Origin: Myxococcales bacterium
Lineage (GTDB): Bacteria > Myxococcota_A > Polyangia > Palsa-1104 > SHYY01
DNA length: 59,248 nucleotides
Assembly: GCA_023248875.1 (NCBI GenBank)
Contig: JAHFDT010000003.1
Location: forward strand, 1-59,248
Direction: 5' to 3'
A model generated the notes under the pieces. It was not told the DNA's origin. It made no database searches and saw only the letters and a program-made list of their open reading frames with translations. Below, piece after piece: positions 6,145-45,877 of the stretch. Both the position numbers and the translations under genes were made by a program. How positions within the stretch are numbered: the stretch's first letter is position 1; each line of letters begins with the position of its first letter.

Positions 6145-6184
6145 GGCATTAGCCTGTTAACTAGAAAATCTCTTGGAGGAGCTG

Positions 6185-7357
6185 GTGACCCAGAGTGAAG
6201 TCCAGGCCGCACACCACGAGATTCGCGCGTCGGTGCGGGAATTCGTCGAGCGGGAAGTCCTCCCCATTTGTGACGAGCTCGACAACCGCGATCAGGAGAT
6301 CCCGCTTTCGGTCATCGGCAAGATGGCCGAGCTCGGCTACTTTGGCCTCATCTTCCCGCCGGAATACGGCGGCATGGGGCTCGATACGGCAGCGATGGCG
6401 ATCGTGACCGAAGAGCTCTCACGTGGTTGGCTTTCGGTGGGCAGTGTGATGACGCGCATGCTGATCACGGGCTCGCTTATCATGGCTCACGGCACCGAGG
6501 AGCAGAAGCGGCGCTTTCTGCCCAAGATCTGCTCGGGTGAACTACTGACCGCGGCCGCCTTTACCGAGCCCGACGTGGGCAGCGATACCGCCGCCATGAA
6601 GCTGCGCGCCGAGCGTCACGGCGATCGCTACCTTCTCACCGGTGAGAAGACCTGGTGCACCTTTGCCAACCGCGCCCATGTGCTCACAGTGCTCGCGCGC
6701 ACTCACGCCGACGCCAAGCCGAAGCACAAGGGGCTGTCTATTCTGCTGGTGGAGAAGATCCCCGGCGACAGTTTTGCGCCACCCGAGCTGGGGGGATCGC
6801 CCATCCCGACCATCGGCTACAAGGGGATGCGCTCCTATTCTCTCCAGTTCGACGGCTACGCCTGCCCCGCCGAAAATCTGCTCGGCGGTGAGGAGGGCAA
6901 GGGCTTTTACCAGCTGATGGCTACCTACGAATACGCGCGCATTCAGACTGCCGCGCGCGCGGTCGGCGTCGCTCAGGCCGCCTACGAAGCGGCCCTTGAC
7001 TATTCACGCGAGCGTGTTCAGTTCGACCAGCCGATCGCCTCCTTTCAGGTGATCCGACACAAGCTCGCCCACGCGGCGACCGAGATCGAAGCCGCCAGGA
7101 GGCTCTGCTACTACGCCGCGGAGATGAAGGACACGGGGAGGCGGTGCGATCTCGAGGCCGGCATGGCCAAGGTGTTCGCGGCCGAGATGGCGGAACGGGT
7201 AACCTCCGAAATGCTCCAGGTTTTCGGCGGATACGGCTACTCGCGCGAATACCCGGCGCAGCGCTTCTGGCGGGATGCGCGGGTCTTTCGCATTTTCGAA
7301 GGCACCTCCGAAATTCAATATGAAGTGATCGCCAGGAGGCTGATCGGAGACAAATGA
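6185..7357 (+). CDS. mcd: Acyl-CoA dehydrogenase, probable (2S)-methylsuccinyl-CoA dehydrogenase
   Basis: ACAD motifs FTEPDVGSD, FGGYGY, IFEGTSEIQ; Mcd-like IGYKGM and ARIQTAARAVGVAQ; context with mch and ccr. GTG start chosen for GGAGGA RBS (track uses TTG 6173). Confidence 0.8.
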   Translation: MTQSEVQAAHHEIRASVREFVEREVLPICDELDNRDQEIPLSVIGKMAELGYFGLIFPPEYGGMGLDTAAMAIVTEELSRGWLSVGSVMTRMLITGSLIMAHGTEEQKRRFLPKICSGELLTAAAFTEPDVGSDTAAMKLRAERHGDRYLLTGEKTWCTFANRAHVLTVLARTHADAKPKHKGLSILLVEKIPGDSFAPPELGGSPIPTIGYKGMRSYSLQFDGYACPAENLLGGEEGKGFYQLMATYEYARIQTAARAVGVAQAAYEAALDYSRERVQFDQPIASFQVIRHKLAHAATEIEAARRLCYYAAEMKDTGRRCDLEAGMAKVFAAEMAERVTSEMLQVFGGYGYSREYPAQRFWRDARVFRIFEGTSEIQYEVIARRLIGDK

Positions 7358-7407
7358 AGGTAAACGTTCACGGGGTGAGAAATGGAACGTTGTGATTTTG
7401 GGCACTT

Positions 7408-7482
7408 CCGCGCGGTCCTCGCGCGGTGGGGGGGCGGCTCGACGAGCTTTGCTCGTCGAGGGGGGGACGGGAAAGTCCCCCC
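7408..7482. repeat. Three-hairpin intergenic element, copy 1
   Basis: CCGCGCG-N5-CGCGCGG (7408-7426), CTCGACGAGC-TTT-GCTCGTCGAG (7438-7460), GGGGGGAC-GGGAAA-GTCCCCCC (7461-7482); homologous to 45732-45803. Confidence 0.85.
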
Positions 7483-7505
7483 TGTGAACGGAGACAAATA
7501 AAACA

Positions 7506-8594
7506 ATGAGCGTGCTGACCCCTCGCTACGGGCGCCTGCTCGGCGATTTTACCGTTGGTGCCACCTATCAGCATCCCTGGGAGGTGACGATCGACGAGGG
7601 CATGGTGGCGCTGTTTGCGGCCTCGTTCCAGGACGCTATGCCGCTGTTCGCTTCGAACGCCTTTGCTCAGGCGATGAACTTTCCCTCGCGGCCGCTCCAT
7701 CCGCTCCTGTGCCTCAACCTGGCGCTGTCCTTCTCGGTGCACGATGTTTCCGAACAGGCCATCGCGCATCTCGCCTACCTCGATGTCCGTTTTCCCGATG
7801 CCGGCTTTGTCGGCGATACGGTCACCGCACGCTCTACCGTCATCGACGTCAGAACTGCATCGAGCGGTGACAAGGGCGTCGTGCATGTGCGCACGGCGCT
7901 CGAAGAGACGAATGGCCGTGTGCTCTGCATCTTCGAACGGAAGGCGCTCATTCGCGCCGGCCACAGTGAATCCTCCCTGCTCGTCGCCTCGGATGCGTAC
8001 GCCGTGCCGCCGCTCGTTGAGGTGCACGAACTGCCGGTGGAGTTCGCCCGGGTTACACCGCCGCACCGGCCCGCCCGTTTTGGCCGCTACTGGGAGGATT
8101 TTTCAGTCGGTCAGACGTTCGCCCATGGCATCGGCCACACCATCGGCGAGAGCGAGCACATGCAGCTGACCACGATCCTTCGCAACAGCCATCCGCTCCA
8201 CTTTGATCAGCTCTACTGTGCCGACCACTCCTTCACCAAAGAGCGCGTGGTCTACGGCGGGCTGGTGTTCGCCTGGACGGCCGCAGCGAGCTCTCGCGAT
8301 CTTGCCGGCCAGGCGGTATGGGATCTGCAGTATCGCCAAGGAGCCCATCCGGCATCGGTGGCGGCGGGCGATACAATTTATGCAGCGTCGCGCATCCTCG
8401 CTCTCACGGATCGTGGAATGCTGGGTGCTGTGACAACGACGCTGGTGGGCCTCAAGAACATCACGGCGCGTGCGGCCGTCGAGCGCTATGGCGAGGCGCT
8501 GTTCGCAGAGGAGCTGTTGAAAAAGGAGCACAAGATCGGTGAAAAGGTGTTCGAAATTCAACGCACGATGCTGGTGCAAAAGAGGCCCGCGTAA
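7506..8594 (+). CDS. mch: Double MaoC/hotdog hydratase, probable mesaconyl-CoA hydratase
   Basis: Two MaoC-like halves (GRLLGDFTVG; GRYWEDFSVG...NSHPLHFD...VYGG); ethylmalonyl-CoA pathway context. Confidence 0.8.
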   Translation: MSVLTPRYGRLLGDFTVGATYQHPWEVTIDEGMVALFAASFQDAMPLFASNAFAQAMNFPSRPLHPLLCLNLALSFSVHDVSEQAIAHLAYLDVRFPDAGFVGDTVTARSTVIDVRTASSGDKGVVHVRTALEETNGRVLCIFERKALIRAGHSESSLLVASDAYAVPPLVEVHELPVEFARVTPPHRPARFGRYWEDFSVGQTFAHGIGHTIGESEHMQLTTILRNSHPLHFDQLYCADHSFTKERVVYGGLVFAWTAAASSRDLAGQAVWDLQYRQGAHPASVAAGDTIYAASRILALTDRGMLGAVTTTLVGLKNITARAAVERYGEALFAEELLKKEHKIGEKVFEIQRTMLVQKRPA

Positions 8595-44055: not shown

Positions 44056-45705
44056 ATGGACCTTCGTCGACTGGGCGGAATGGCTGTCATTTTTGCACTG
44101 CTTCTTCCTGCGCTCGCGGATGCAAAAAAGAAGACCAAGCCGGAGGAGGGGGGCGAAACCATGACCTTCACGCCCGAGGAGACGGGCGCGGCCAAAGCCA
44201 AGCGGGCGGCGGTGATCGATGAGAAGGCGGCCGCGGGAACCGCTTCGAAGGTGCTCGATAGCGCCCTCAAGCTGTACGAGAAAGAGGACTACTATTCGGC
44301 CACCATCGGGTTGAACAAGGTGATGGAGGGTCAGACCACCGACGATGAGATCAATCGTCAGCGCGCCGAATTCTTTATGGGCAAGGCGCTCTTCAATATG
44401 GGCTACTACTCGGCGTCGCTCTCCTATTTCGACCGCATCGTCCAGCGGGGGGGCGAGCACCACTACTACGCCAAAACGCTGCAGTGGCTGGCATCGCTGT
44501 CGCAAAAGCTGCCCGAGTCGGCGGGCGTGCTCGATAAGATCGGCAAGTACACGCGCGAGGATCTCGACCAGCCGGCGCTCGAATCGGTGCGGGACCAGCT
44601 CTTTTTTCTACTGGGCCGCTACCACTACACGAAGGGCAATTTCAAAGAGGCGGTGGGGCTGTTTCAGGCGCTGCCCGAGGCGAGCGAATTCTACGCCCGC
44701 GCCAAGTTTTTCGAAGGCATCACCTACGTGCGCCAGTACCAGGCGCAGCCCGCTGCCGAGGCCTTCAAGGCGATCTTGCGCAAAGCCAAGGAGCACCCCG
44801 ATAAGGCCACCCAGGAGTTCGAGGAGCTGGCCAACATTTCCTTGGCGCGCACCTTTTATTCCCTATCGCAGTTCGACAAGGCGGTGAAGTATTTCGACCG
44901 TGTGCCGACCGAATCGGCCGACTGGTTGGCGTCGCTGTTCGAGTCGGCCTGGGCGCAGTTCCAGATCGACGGCGACTCGAAGGCGCTCGGCAATATCCAT
45001 TCGATCAACGCGCCATTTTTCGAGAACGAATTCTATCCCGAGTCGCTGATTTTGAAGGCGGTCATCTACTTCCAACGCTGCAACTACGAGCTGGCGATGG
45101 CGGCGGTGGCGGAGTTCAACGAGACCTATCCGGGGCTGAAGAAGGACATCGAAAAGGTAATCAACAAGTACCCGGACAACGCGGCTTTTTACAAGTATGT
45201 GCTCCGGATCCGCCGCGGCGAATCGGGGCTACCCGACCGTGTGCAGCGCGCGGCCGAGGGGGCGCTGTCGGACAAGACGCTGGTCAAGACGCTCGACTAT
45301 GTCGCCGAGCTCGACCGCGAGCTGCACCAGGTGGAGAAATCAGACCCGGCCTGGAAGTCGACGGCCATCGCTGGCAACATCTTGCAGGATCTGACGCTAC
45401 AGCAGTCCCTGGCGCAGAACGATGCCGGCACCATGGCACGTGATCGCCTCAAGCGGCTCTCGACGGAGATCCAGGAGCTGGTGAAGCAGGCGCTCAAGAT
45501 CGAGTACGAAACGCTGAATGCGCAAAAGGGCGTGCTGGAGGCGTCGCTGCGGAGCGAGCAGTCGGTCGCGAGCGGCACCGCGCGCAAGAATGCCGAGGTG
45601 GTCGCCGATGATGAGCACGAGAAGTGGCCCTTCGACGGCGAGTATTGGCAGGACGAGCTCGGGTACTATAAGTCCCGCATCGTCAACAAGTGCTCGGCCA
45701 AGTGA
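44056..45705 (+). CDS. gltC: Adventurous gliding motility TPR protein GltC-like
   Basis: Signal peptide, TPRs, C-terminal DDEHEKWPFDGEYWQDELGYY motif. Confidence 0.8.
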   Translation: MDLRRLGGMAVIFALLLPALADAKKKTKPEEGGETMTFTPEETGAAKAKRAAVIDEKAAAGTASKVLDSALKLYEKEDYYSATIGLNKVMEGQTTDDEINRQRAEFFMGKALFNMGYYSASLSYFDRIVQRGGEHHYYAKTLQWLASLSQKLPESAGVLDKIGKYTREDLDQPALESVRDQLFFLLGRYHYTKGNFKEAVGLFQALPEASEFYARAKFFEGITYVRQYQAQPAAEAFKAILRKAKEHPDKATQEFEELANISLARTFYSLSQFDKAVKYFDRVPTESADWLASLFESAWAQFQIDGDSKALGNIHSINAPFFENEFYPESLILKAVIYFQRCNYELAMAAVAEFNETYPGLKKDIEKVINKYPDNAAFYKYVLRIRRGESGLPDRVQRAAEGALSDKTLVKTLDYVAELDRELHQVEKSDPAWKSTAIAGNILQDLTLQQSLAQNDAGTMARDRLKRLSTEIQELVKQALKIEYETLNAQKGVLEASLRSEQSVASGTARKNAEVVADDEHEKWPFDGEYWQDELGYYKSRIVNKCSAK

Positions 45706-45731
45706 GGGCGCAGATGAAACTAGCGAAAACA

Positions 45732-45803
45732 CCGCGCGGGGAGCGCGCGGCAGGGGGAGGCTCGAGCGAGCTTGGATCGCTGGAGGGGGACGGGAAGGTC
45801 CCC
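45732..45803. repeat. Three-hairpin intergenic element, copy 2
   Basis: CCGCGCG-N5-CGCGCGG (45732-45750), imperfect CTCGAGCGA/TCGCTGGAG stem, GGGGAC-GGGAAG-GTCCCC (45786-45803). Confidence 0.85.
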
Positions 45804-45812
45804 GAGTATGCC

Positions 45813-45863
45813 GAGCTTGGGTACTACAAATCGCGCATCGTCAACAAGTGCTCGGCCAAGTGA
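45813..45863 (+). repeat. 51-bp duplicate of gltC 3' end (45655-45705)
   Basis: Encodes the same ELGYYKSRIVNKCSAK-stop; 47/51 identical, four third-position synonymous differences. Confidence 0.95.
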
Positions 45864-45877
45864 GAGGTTAGGTTCCG

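Follow-up and report, generated by a model that had tools for sequence, protein, structure and literature searches.

A family of small three-hairpin elements in the Haliangiales/Kofleriaceae whose insertion is accompanied by long, variable duplications of the target

Introduction

In a myxococcal contig (JAHFDT010000003.1 of assembly GCA_023248875.1; the window analysed here is its first 59,248 nt), the gene for an mcd-like acyl-CoA dehydrogenase is followed by three hairpins and then, just before a gene for a mesaconyl-CoA hydratase-like protein (mch), by what looks like a second copy of its own last codons. What is the structured stretch, and how did the end of a gene come to lie on both sides of it? 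A sequence-only reading of the window, made by a model, had proposed a small mobile or structured RNA element that targets gene 3' ends inside operons. We know of no described element of such a size that repeats up to ~100 bases of a neighbouring gene's end.

Results

An insertion in the mcd-mch junction

The junction holds a 133-nt insertion (7356-7488), copy A, whose parts are given in Table 1. The strings from which the element had been recognized are all in place, namely TGATCGGAGACAAATGAA (7341-7358) and TGAACGGAGACAAATAAA (7485-7502) for the two gene ends, and CGTTCACGGGG (7365-7375) and CCCTGTGAACG (7480-7490) for a bracketing inverted repeat. The mcd-like gene has orthologs of 81-91% identity, and in 5/5 of these the mcd-mch junction carries no insert and the stop overlaps or adjoins the start. 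With the orthologous sites empty, the element has clearly been inserted into a tight junction, as its supposed mobility implied.

The duplicate of the mcd gene end is real, but its exact extent is 11 nt, because the 'TGAA' ahead of the downstream duplicate is copy A's own tail (..CCCCCCTGTGAA), which is also found in the sister copy G000:C123:61785-61873. The swapped stop codon can likewise be refined. There are indeed two different stops, and the present mcd stop TGA (7355-7357) takes its T from the duplication and its GA from the insert (TAA having become T/GA), whereas the TAA of the downstream duplicate (7499-7501) agrees with the ancestral stop position, 4 nt 5' of the mch start. An 11-nt flank match is below the 99th percentile (12) of 1500 random sites and hence within the chance range, so that the duplication at copy A rests on the 5/5 empty orthologous sites and on the pattern across the family. 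The inverted repeat belongs to the element and recurs, with wobbles, in the C123 sister, but as an 11-nt imperfect repeat it is found only in these two copies and is missing from most family members; no terminal inverted repeats were found at the other insert ends bounded by duplications. Besides stop codons and one arm of the repeat (7365-7375), the leader has an ATG at 7382 and a G-rich SD-like motif; the RNA folding z-score of copy A is -4.1. Contigs from two DNA runs of one study enter the insert (X1, 6700-7473 and 7459-8037; X2, 7203-7370); no empty allele was seen in the contigs of these runs, which proves nothing.

Table 1. Features of the two element copies in the window and of the genes beside copy A.
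Feature	Position	Strand	Basis or remark
Acyl-CoA dehydrogenase (mcd-like), left of copy A	6173..7357	+	ORF list; Pfam Acyl-CoA_dh_N/M/1
Upstream copy, 11-nt target duplication CGGAGACAAAT	7345..7355	+	sequence match
Copy A 5' leader	7356..7407	+	homologous to leader of sister copy G000:C123:61785-61873
Copy A stem 1, CCGCGCG / 5-nt loop / CGCGCGG	7408..7426	+	family-wide sequence conservation; 97.6% cells paired
Copy A stem 2, CTCGACGAGC-TTT-GCTCGTCGAG	7438..7460	+	variable, covarying; both sides changed in 8/9 pairs
Copy A stem 3, GGGGAC-GGGAAA-GTCCCC	7463..7480	+	nearly invariant in family; 99.4% cells paired
Copy A 3' tail, CCTGTGAA	7481..7488	+	overlaps second inverted-repeat arm (7480-7490)
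Downstream copy, 11-nt duplication CGGAGACAAAT	7489..7499	+	sequence match and empty orthologous junctions
Copy A small ORF, 39 codons	7382..7501	+	leader ATG, through three hairpins, to TAA of downstream duplicate; predicted, with putative function
Mesaconyl-CoA hydratase-like (MaoC), right of copy A	7506..8594	+	ORF list and Pfam
Copy B upstream duplicate, 53 nt	45654..45706	+	end of TPR protein gene (44056-45705), stop included
Copy B insert, 105 nt	45707..45811	+	leader 45707-45731; tail to 45811
Copy B stems	stem 1 45732-45750; imperfect stem 2 ~45761-45785; stem 3 45786-45803	+	alignment
Copy B downstream duplicate, 53 nt	45812..45864	+	4 mismatches vs upstream copy
Copy B small ORF, 49 codons	45714..45863	+	leader SD-like GAGGG and ATG; predicted

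The second three-stem core that had been noticed in the window, at 45732-45803, was confirmed. It belongs to copy B, a 105-nt insert whose flanks carry a 53-nt duplicate of the upstream gene's end. This duplicate had been overlooked in the sequence-only reading. The four mismatches between the two duplicates all lie at synonymous third-codon positions in the frame of the gene. The site is empty in 4/4 orthologs in which the motif located the gene end, from 7 ortholog loci (the motif failed at L142, L144 and L146, which were left out). The RNA folding z-score is -2.2. The predicted small ORF of copy B keeps to the frame of the gene as it crosses first the element and then the downstream duplicate, and ends at the duplicate's TGA, 14 nt 5' of the next gene's ATG (45878).

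A family with a covarying three-hairpin core

The suggested scan of the genome for further copies gave 14 full copies (nhmmer E-values 2.6e-7 to 2.3e-17, 12/14 of them at 5e-13 or better), and more than 200 copies were found in Kofleriaceae/Haliangiales contigs and metagenomes, nhmmer confirming 97/114 loci from the genome collection and 120/120 from metagenomes. The 18-mer of stem 3 is present in 12/41 relatives (reversed control, 0); its one match in viral contigs was unconfirmed as a full element. Family f2 is where both the element family and the Y1 transposase family are concentrated.

The ~85-nt core has conserved stems 1 and 3, with a strongly covarying stem 2 between them, and closes with a defined 3' tail; in an alignment of 90 copies its hairpins, all three different, lie in direct series and are joined by conserved linkers. 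Overall, 92.1% of cells are paired, compared with 82.9% in shuffles (0/500 of which reach the observed value) and 42-54% when the partner is slid. The hairpins are thus maintained by compensatory change, and the small non-coding element with a covarying three-hairpin structure that had been proposed is well supported. One-sided changes in stem 1, read on the + strand, are G-U/U-G compatible in 23 cells and unpaired in 15. An Rfam family would have offered another account of the structure, but there were no matches at gathering score over the window and none at E up to 10 over 7300-7550. Furthermore, a term search of the open-access literature on myxobacterial MITEs, palindromic repeats or RAYTs met no description of the family.

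Both neighbouring genes were called for 63 element blocks. Convergent genes flank 37 of these blocks and divergent genes 3; the other 23 have co-directional neighbours, with the element in sense orientation in 11 and antisense in 12. The prevalence of convergent neighbours (37/63) speaks against specific targeting of gene 3' ends inside operons. Nor are gene 3' ends the only targets, since some copies are located after tRNA genes or at the starts of minus-strand genes, and two reside in frame, in different frames, inside proteins (a RecQ-like helicase and TrmFO).

Target duplications and a polar layout

Gene-end duplicates do recur at other copies. Adjacent target duplications of 15-104 nt were found at 28/217 tested copies; the 99th percentile of flank match length expected by chance was 12 (n=1500), and a second control gave 13.7, with a maximum of 18 (n=117). 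Left out of this count were copies whose flank is another element unit in a tandem array (L034, L043, L069, L017, L079:662, L255, L211 and L179), the 3' ends of two paralogous tRNA-Ser at C69, L010 with a 32-nt repeat that is not adjacent, L227 (where the repeat is itself a small palindromic element), and the low scorers copy A (11), L094 (12) and L226 (14). Across the family, insertion is accompanied by a direct duplication of the target whose length runs from 11 to at least 104 nt. About 87% of copies have no detectable duplication; such copies could be old, could carry short duplications or could have come by another route.

The layout is always polar. The 3' tail adjoins the downstream copy, which begins 0-8 nt beyond the end of the 86-position model except at L266 (where the extra 10 nt are part of the duplication), while the upstream copy stops at the left-hand gene boundary and is followed by a variable leader. 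The gene's stop lies no more than 2 nt from the end of the duplication in 13/18 duplications with a clear left-hand ORF; one duplication terminates at the 3' end of a tRNA-Arg, three (L148, L237 and L008) include the start of a left-hand gene that is on the minus strand, and none lies within the right-hand gene. Two insertions at the same gene end (L161 and L232) have duplications of ~30 and 73 nt and differ in leader and stem 2. Arrays of the form (target+element)n are common (L161, L236, L228, L080 and L061). In arrays, 5'-partial units are found ahead of full units.

Paired duplicates differ by 16 synonymous and 3 non-synonymous changes (266 codons), a bias with P of about 1e-4 to 3e-4 if the downstream copy is assumed to drift freely. 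In L008, L030 and L038 the duplicate is perfect and the leader is a degraded copy of the native sequence 3' of the downstream duplicate. L079 also scores for leader resemblance, its downstream flank being the next array unit. Stem 2 was considered as a guide and rejected, as in the 28 cases it shows neither complementarity to the target at either junction nor identity with it (longest common substrings averaged 5.1 and 5.4, against 5.2-5.3 for mismatched pairs). The frame of the duplicate is open through the element in 14/18 cases, compared with 22/36 for the other two frames; the predicted small ORF is a feature of both window copies and appears not to be general across the family.

Discussion

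The element and known systems

The REP or REPIN unit is an imperfect palindrome of 20-40 nt, usually found as inverted doublets (REPINs). Like REPs, BIMEs and REPINs, the elements described here are GC-rich extragenic hairpins that are built as modular mosaics and occur preferentially at gene 3' ends and in convergent intergenic regions, in a genome that has Y1 transposase genes; they differ in their distinct hairpins in series, their polar 5' leader and 3' tail, and the length of their target duplications. We found no single-copy RAYT flanked by the repeats, and of the six Y1_Tnp paralogs only one has a copy, placed after the stop as with other genes. The link to RAYTs is weak, and across genomes it is imperfect.

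MITEs carry terminal inverted repeats that match a partner insertion sequence and make a short duplication of fixed length. Our elements are likewise small, non-autonomous, interspersed and rich in hairpins, but they mostly lack inverted termini and their duplications (11-104 nt) are not fixed. A CTAG-ended 250-bp MITE of this genome carries an identical stem-2 hairpin. Three matches to DDE_Tnp_1, known at domain level, lie in the genome; one belongs to a DDE_5 insertion sequence whose end is also that of the CTAG MITE. Rickettsia palindromic elements can sit in frame inside protein genes, as our elements do in the RecQ-like helicase and TrmFO; we know of no target duplications described for them and of no relation between them and the present element.

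MIRUs (mycobacterial interspersed repetitive units) are likewise short and non-coding and lie at gene junctions, in some cases as tandem units, and they are reported to insert at start codons and to have an internal ORF translationally coupled to the gene (PMC12548453). The ORFs of both window copies similarly end at a stop-start junction. However, MIRUs belong to another phylum and are compared with our elements by description; the passage of PMC12548453 on their insertion reports no long target duplication, and the present family has three GC hairpins, occurs in both orientations and has an ORF feature that appears not to be general. A term search of a REP survey gave no mention of myxobacteria (PMC3733652).

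The closest parallels to the duplications come from larger elements. Insertion with long target duplication (ILTD; Furuta et al., 2010; PMC2853133) is described for kb-scale restriction-modification units, each found once, with long, variable direct target duplications, no recognizable mobility gene, a repeat that can overlap a gene or tRNA 3' end, and a mechanism given as unknown. All of these traits of the flanks, and the lack of a recognizable mobility gene, are shared by our elements, which differ in being 100-nt repeated non-coding units at dozens of independent sites with one polar layout. Copy B has a duplication above the 30 bp used for ILTD, 53 nt, that is single in the empty site of 4/4 orthologs, and 18 further copies have duplications of 32-104 nt, known from filled sites alone; the insert is a non-coding repeat of 105-133 nt and not a gene unit such as an R-M system. 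IS1549 and IS1634, of the IS1634 family, are also described as making long, variable direct repeats on insertion (8-514 bp), with no mechanistic model (PMC2266710). The likeness lies in long duplications of variable length; those insertion sequences are autonomous, of 1.5-2 kb, with a DDE transposase and terminal inverted repeats, whereas we found neither related ends nor a linked transposase for our element, which has no ORF for one.

How the duplications might arise

Our preferred explanation, held with somewhat better than even confidence, is that these are selfish, non-autonomous, non-coding three-hairpin elements of ~85-130 nt, of the REP/BIME/MITE/MIRU kind, in the Haliangiales/Kofleriaceae (Myxococcota), which insert with a long, variable target duplication. 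Integration would be a polar, two-step reaction at the DNA level, with joins that are widely and variably staggered as in ILTD and IS1549/IS1634, catalysed in trans by a putative enzyme. One join would be made at the gene boundary, where the DNA is richer in AT, and the other inside the left-hand gene, at a distance of up to ~100 nt. Because the sequence between the joins would be duplicated, the end of the left-hand gene and the native upstream context of the right-hand gene would both be kept, and such intact neighbours would account for the persistence of insertions in junctions only 0-20 nt wide. A stop codon would often come from the leader, which in both window copies also provides an SD-like motif and ATG; the small ORF opened in this way, running to the duplicated stop, could restore termination-reinitiation coupling, as proposed for MIRUs.

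Several observations sit uneasily with this explanation. A linked transposase or reverse transcriptase, which the sequence-only reading had suggested looking for, was not found, nor was any other enzyme, and with terminal inverted repeats missing from most copies, the element matches no known transposase mechanism. The 16:3 synonymous bias is not expected of a passive by-product of insertion, and the large majority of copies (~87%) show no duplication. The leaders of L008, L030 and L038, degraded copies of the sequence past a perfect downstream duplicate, do not follow from it either. The upstream boundary at gene ends is more exact than random insertion plus selection would predict, and we can offer only the AT-richness of the boundaries as its cause. 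Finally, the small-ORF idea appears not to be general (14/18 against 22/36 in control frames).

Some of these observations would be better served if the long duplications were not made at transposition at all. In one-sided homologous recombination from filled into empty alleles or between sister chromosomes, completed by an illegitimate join at the element's 3' end, as in homology-facilitated illegitimate recombination or unequal exchange, the upstream copy and leader would be donor sequence and the downstream copy recipient sequence. In favour of this, the differences between duplicates are mostly synonymous (16:3) and include third-position swaps of G and C such as are usual between functional alleles that have diverged, leaders look like degraded recipient downstream sequence, (target+element)n arrays are common (as at L161, L236, L228, L080 and L061), and two lineages have unequal duplication lengths at one gene end. 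We nevertheless regard this route as unlikely. It requires a break at the element's 3' end each time; the junction there with the downstream copy is sharp and by eye shows no microhomology with the sequence 5' of the upstream copy; it would be inefficient over 53-73 nt at 7% divergence; and since it needs a donor with the element already at the locus, arrival at more than 200 different loci is left unexplained. Ordinary homologous exchange with the empty alleles of the population could refresh the downstream copy instead. The defined 3' tail, the variable 5' leader, the arrays of 5'-partial then full units and the variable length of the duplications also recall SINE-like retroposition, in which element RNA would be reverse transcribed from a target nick to give a precise 3' end and variable 5' ends and duplications, and the excess of G-U/U-G compatible over unpaired one-sided changes in stem 1 (23 against 15 cells) points the same way. 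This is nonetheless the least probable of the readings weighed here. There are no RVT_1 matches in this genome (88% complete), none in 5/12 element-positive relatives (G000, G012, G020, G026 and G032), of which G020 has six matches to the stem-3 18-mer, and reverse transcriptases are present in 21/22 genomes of family f3, where the element is found in only 2/22; some leaders, moreover, are clearly derived from the target. Without RVT_1 in G000 and without co-distribution with the element, a link to reverse transcriptase was rejected. A DGR-like template and variable repeat was rejected as well, because by eye adenines are not where the duplicates differ, and a reverse transcriptase is lacking.

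That a REP-associated Y1 (HUH) transposase moves a REP/REPIN-type element appears very unlikely. GC-rich hairpins lie at gene 3' ends, convergent intergenic regions are preferred and divergent ones avoided, one of the six Y1_Tnp paralogs (C135) has a copy directly after its stop codon, and the element and the Y1 family are both concentrated in family f2; but the three different hairpins in series form no inverted REP doublet and the conserved GTAG/CGTC head is not seen at any hairpin base. Moreover, the Y1 genes share a conserved 5' region with a hairpin of its own, have unrelated 3' flanks and look like IS200-type units, and their family is missing from 5/12 element-positive genomes and present in 7/29 element-negative ones. 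To our knowledge, REP/REPIN and IS200/IS605 insertions make no target duplication. We give equally little credence to a mainly functional cis-acting RNA (an mRNA 3' stabilizer, an insulator or a translational coupler), recruited by the host and not currently mobile. The strong covariation, the conservation of stems 1 and 3 across genera, the predicted small ORFs of both window copies, ending at the duplicated stop, and the intactness of copy B beside an old duplication (7.5% divergence) are all consistent with such a role. Against it are the empty sites of relatives, the perfect duplications of 40-104 nt, which imply recent events, the use of both orientations between co-directional genes (11 and 12), the two copies translated inside proteins in different frames, and the lack of an Rfam match even at E up to 10. 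Function and mobility are, in any case, compatible with each other.

Returning to polar insertion of a selfish element, we tentatively consider a more specific possibility, to which we give well below even weight. Integration may be of an undescribed polar kind, in which the 5' end is joined at a gene boundary and the defined 3' end at a point that lies upstream of it by up to ~100 nt. The element would then always bring along the end (or start) of the neighbouring gene as a spare copy, insulating both neighbours from its own insertion. The enzyme may be a host or domesticated protein and not a classical transposase, and the codon-aware conservation may mean that the spare copy has a use, such as in reversible excision or in exchange with empty alleles, if either is frequent.

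In summary, long, variable target duplications had been reported for a few large elements, without a known mechanism. Here they are seen dozens of times with one tiny element and with junctions readable to the base, so that the mechanism becomes testable. For the annotation of Kofleriaceae genomes, the family accounts for spurious 'gene-end fragments', altered stops, short ORFs, in-frame protein insertions and contig breaks at repeats. Furthermore, duplication at the junction leaves the neighbouring genes intact, and is thus a way for selfish DNA to colonize genomes in which genes touch or overlap.

Insertions at two gene ends

Copy A is the element copy between the mcd-like and mch genes (see the table), and its 133 nt represent an insertion because they are absent from all five orthologous mcd-mch junctions (81-91% protein identity), where the stop adjoins or overlaps the start. 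Every string quoted in the sequence-only reading was found in the window where that reading had placed it. Its claim of a downstream duplicate of the mcd end holds for an exact 11-nt direct repeat, CGGAGACAAAT, which bounds the insert, but not for the preceding 'TGAA', which is the element's own 3' tail and is common to a sister copy on contig C123. The present mcd stop is T|GA, in which the T is derived from the repeat and the GA from the insert, and the older TAA is retained in the downstream repeat, 4 nt ahead of the mch start. In copy A and at locus L038, TAA or TAG has been swapped for TGA by the insert, with its position unchanged.

The core of copy B was also located as described, together with a flanking duplication that had been missed: a 53-nt repeat of a TPR-protein gene's end, including its stop, with four mismatches. 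The site is empty in all four of the seven orthologous loci at which motif search located the gene end. Outgroups, compared by eye, suggest that three of the four differences arose in the downstream copy.

In both window copies, a Shine-Dalgarno-like motif and an ATG in the leader open a small ORF (39 codons in copy A, 49 in copy B) that crosses the hairpins and ends at the downstream duplicate's stop codon; the next gene begins 4 nt further on in copy A and 14 nt further on in copy B. These ORFs recall the account of mycobacterial interspersed repetitive units in a review (PMC12548453). The small ORF is not general, the relevant frame being open in 14/18 cases vs 22/36 in other frames.

Features and coordinates (window positions, or contigs of this genome, G000; L, locus)
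Feature	Location	Detail
Acyl-CoA dehydrogenase (mcd)	6173-7357	upstream gene of copy A
Copy A insert	7356-7488	133 nt between mcd and mch
Copy A direct repeat	7345-7355; 7489-7499	11 nt
Mesaconyl-CoA hydratase-like protein (mch)	7506-8594	downstream gene of copy A
Copy B core	45732-45803	
Copy B duplication	45654-45706; 45812-45864	TPR-protein gene end
Target duplication	L038	104/104
Target duplication	L029	101/101
Target duplication	L008	85/85
Target duplication	L232	73
Target duplication	L236	67
Target duplication	L005	65
Target duplication	C200	50/50
Y1/HUH transposases (IS200/RAYT-like)	C135:13550-14122; C33:4540-5100; C229:5455-6009 and 7684-8235; C123:32908-33468; C1:8779-9336	six paralogs
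~250-bp MITE	C85:1324-1650; C96:18179-18505; C125:24555-24881; C197:3913-4239	also several contig ends
DDE_5 transposase gene	C230:6992-8230 (L127:1992-3230)	MITE partner
Copy in RecQ-like helicase	C230:6566-6643 (L127:1567-1644)	26 codons
Copy in TrmFO	C175:18240-18319 (L116:741-820)	in-frame
Element copies in tRNA clusters	C69:205-469; C113:5323-5541	flanked by tRNA-Ser genes
Other multi-hairpin element	C110 ~6150-6420 (L125)	44-nt duplication

A new family of hairpin elements

A profile of the cores found 14 full copies, plus fragments, in this genome (4.0 Mb, 304 contigs, 88% complete). Among 41 relatives from this order, 12 contain the 18-mer of stem 3 and none the reversed pattern. Scanning a single genome for each species gave at least 114 loci with this 18-mer; among the matches listed, 97 were identified as the element by nhmmer, nearly all of them from MAGs labelled Kofleriaceae, Haliangiales, Polyangia or Myxococcales. 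The other 17 listed loci lack the element; most belong to other phyla, and they resemble chance matches to the 18-mer. When metagenomes were scanned with a more stringent pattern, all 120 loci were confirmed. Two subfamilies differ by linker, GGGGGGAGG (as in the window) or GGGGTGAAT; some copies carry optional 5' modules, and tandem arrays with a period of ~84 nt also occur. The element has no match in Rfam, and term searches of the open-access literature found no myxobacterial counterpart. These copies make up a new family of small interspersed elements built of hairpins, whose mobility is shown by empty sites.

Across 90 distinct copies, 92.1% of cells are paired, vs 82.9% after shuffling (0/500 shuffles as high) and 42-54% with slid partners. 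The sequence of stems 1 and 3 is conserved, and stem 2 shows both-sided changes in 8/9 pairs. These counts show selection for the hairpins, which may fold as RNA or as DNA. One-sided changes in stem 1 (23 cells G-U-type, 15 unpaired) lean weakly towards the + strand. A role of stem 2 as a guide for the target was ruled out when it was compared with the target.

The sequence-only reading had placed the element inside operons. Both neighbours could be called for 63 of 216 element blocks, and of these 37 are convergent, 11 co-directional sense, 12 co-directional antisense and 3 divergent. In this genome, two proteins include a translated, in-frame element copy: a RecQ-like helicase, between Helicase_C and its zinc-binding domain (RecQ_Zn_bind), and TrmFO, at a variable loop (..RYGKRH[insert]EGDYVNCP..). 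The TrmFO insert is missing from the seven relatives shown, and the same loop in relative G003 holds another long insertion. Element copies also lie in two tRNA clusters, of which that on C113 includes a 5' half-copy (stem 1 and linker only).

Long target duplications

When 150 nt on each side were compared for 217 copies (14 + 98 + 105), adjacent target duplications of 15-104 nt were found in 28, after exclusion of flanks that are another element unit, paralogous tRNA ends, one non-adjacent repeat and one small palindromic repeat. The 99th percentile was 12 at 1500 random sites and 13.7 (maximum 18) at 117 shifted sites. The layout is invariably identical. The downstream duplicate abuts the element tail, 0-8 nt beyond the end of the 86-position model, except in L266, where an additional 10 nt are part of the duplication; the upstream duplicate ends 0-47 nt from stem 1, with the leader occupying the gap. 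No microhomology was seen by eye at the 3' junction.

Where a clear left-hand ORF is present, its stop and the end of the upstream duplicate are at most 2 nt apart in 13/18 cases; all 18 stops fall between -14 and +7 nt, a range that is partly by construction, as stops were sought only from -20 to +12. On C200, the duplication comprises a tRNA-Arg gene from the anticodon stem through the 3' end. The left-hand gene of L148, L237 and L008 runs on the opposite strand and has its start at the boundary, which falls 1 nt into the start codon, 2 nt past it and 26 nt past it, respectively. No stretch duplicated from the right-hand gene was found among the duplications. L161 and L232 are insertions at the same gene end that differ in duplication length, leader and stem 2.

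L030 (genome collection) and L252 (metagenome) share a gene end and an upstream duplication boundary in two organisms, and their elements differ in stem 2 (4/7 pairs), tail and 5' octamer, which suggests that the element or its variable stem was replaced by conversion from another copy. In L236 (metagenome), an rpoD-like gene (C-terminus ..KALRKLRHPSRSKRLKAFVEN) has an array directly at its stop codon, in the order target-element-target, a 15-nt element stub, a 26-nt target piece in which TAG is now CAG, and a further element. The other multi-hairpin element, on C110, has a near-identical stem-2 hairpin. A perfect direct duplication of 44 nt, with a terminator-like hairpin and a T-run inside it, brackets the element; more than one repeat family in this genome thus shows long target duplication.

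Discussion

Insertion of the element is accompanied by long, variable and polar target duplications at gene boundaries; the mechanism is one that we infer. Long variable duplications are known for kb-scale restriction-modification gene insertions, described as 'insertion with long target duplication' in PMC2853133, and for IS1549/IS1634 (8-514 bp), for which PMC2266710 gives 'no mechanistic model'.

A search for an enzyme found no RVT_1 (reverse transcriptase) domain in this genome (88% complete); reverse transcriptases are missing from 5/12 element-positive genomes and present in 21/22 genomes of a family mostly without the element. The Y1 family occurs in 7/12 element-positive vs 7/29 element-negative genomes, and both it and the element are found mainly in one family of the order. 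Its paralogs here (62-68% identity to the C135 query) have in common a conserved upstream region of ~250 nt with its own long hairpin, and their 3' flanks are unrelated; one has an element copy directly after its stop, as at other genes. Relative G016 carries 30 Y1 copies, and the Y1 family was not found in family f3. A separate ~250-bp MITE has CTAGTACCCTGG... termini and a run of GC hairpins, one of which matches the stem-2 hairpin of copy A exactly; many of the assembly's contig ends are breaks at this MITE. The same terminus precedes its DDE_5 partner, which sits immediately at the RecQ-like gene's TAG stop.

Random insertion, with tolerance of every boundary-spanning duplication, would be expected to place the boundary anywhere within the duplicated stretch. 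It is not spread in this way, so the polarity belongs to the process itself, or to some selection. Duplicates compared over 266 codons differ at 19, of which 16 are synonymous and 3 non-synonymous; the synonymous share expected under free drift of the downstream copy is 0.40-0.43 (P ~1e-4 to 3e-4). In L008, L030 and L038 the duplicate is perfect and the leader is a degraded copy of sequence 3' of the downstream duplicate. L079 also scores in this test, but its downstream flank is the next tandem-array unit. Other copies, copy A and its C123 sister among them, have a leader that is part of the element. Neither the synonymous bias nor the target-derived leaders are predicted by passive duplication. 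Homologous exchange of the usual kind with empty alleles from the population could continually refresh the downstream duplicate, or else one-sided recombination from a filled donor could produce the duplications.
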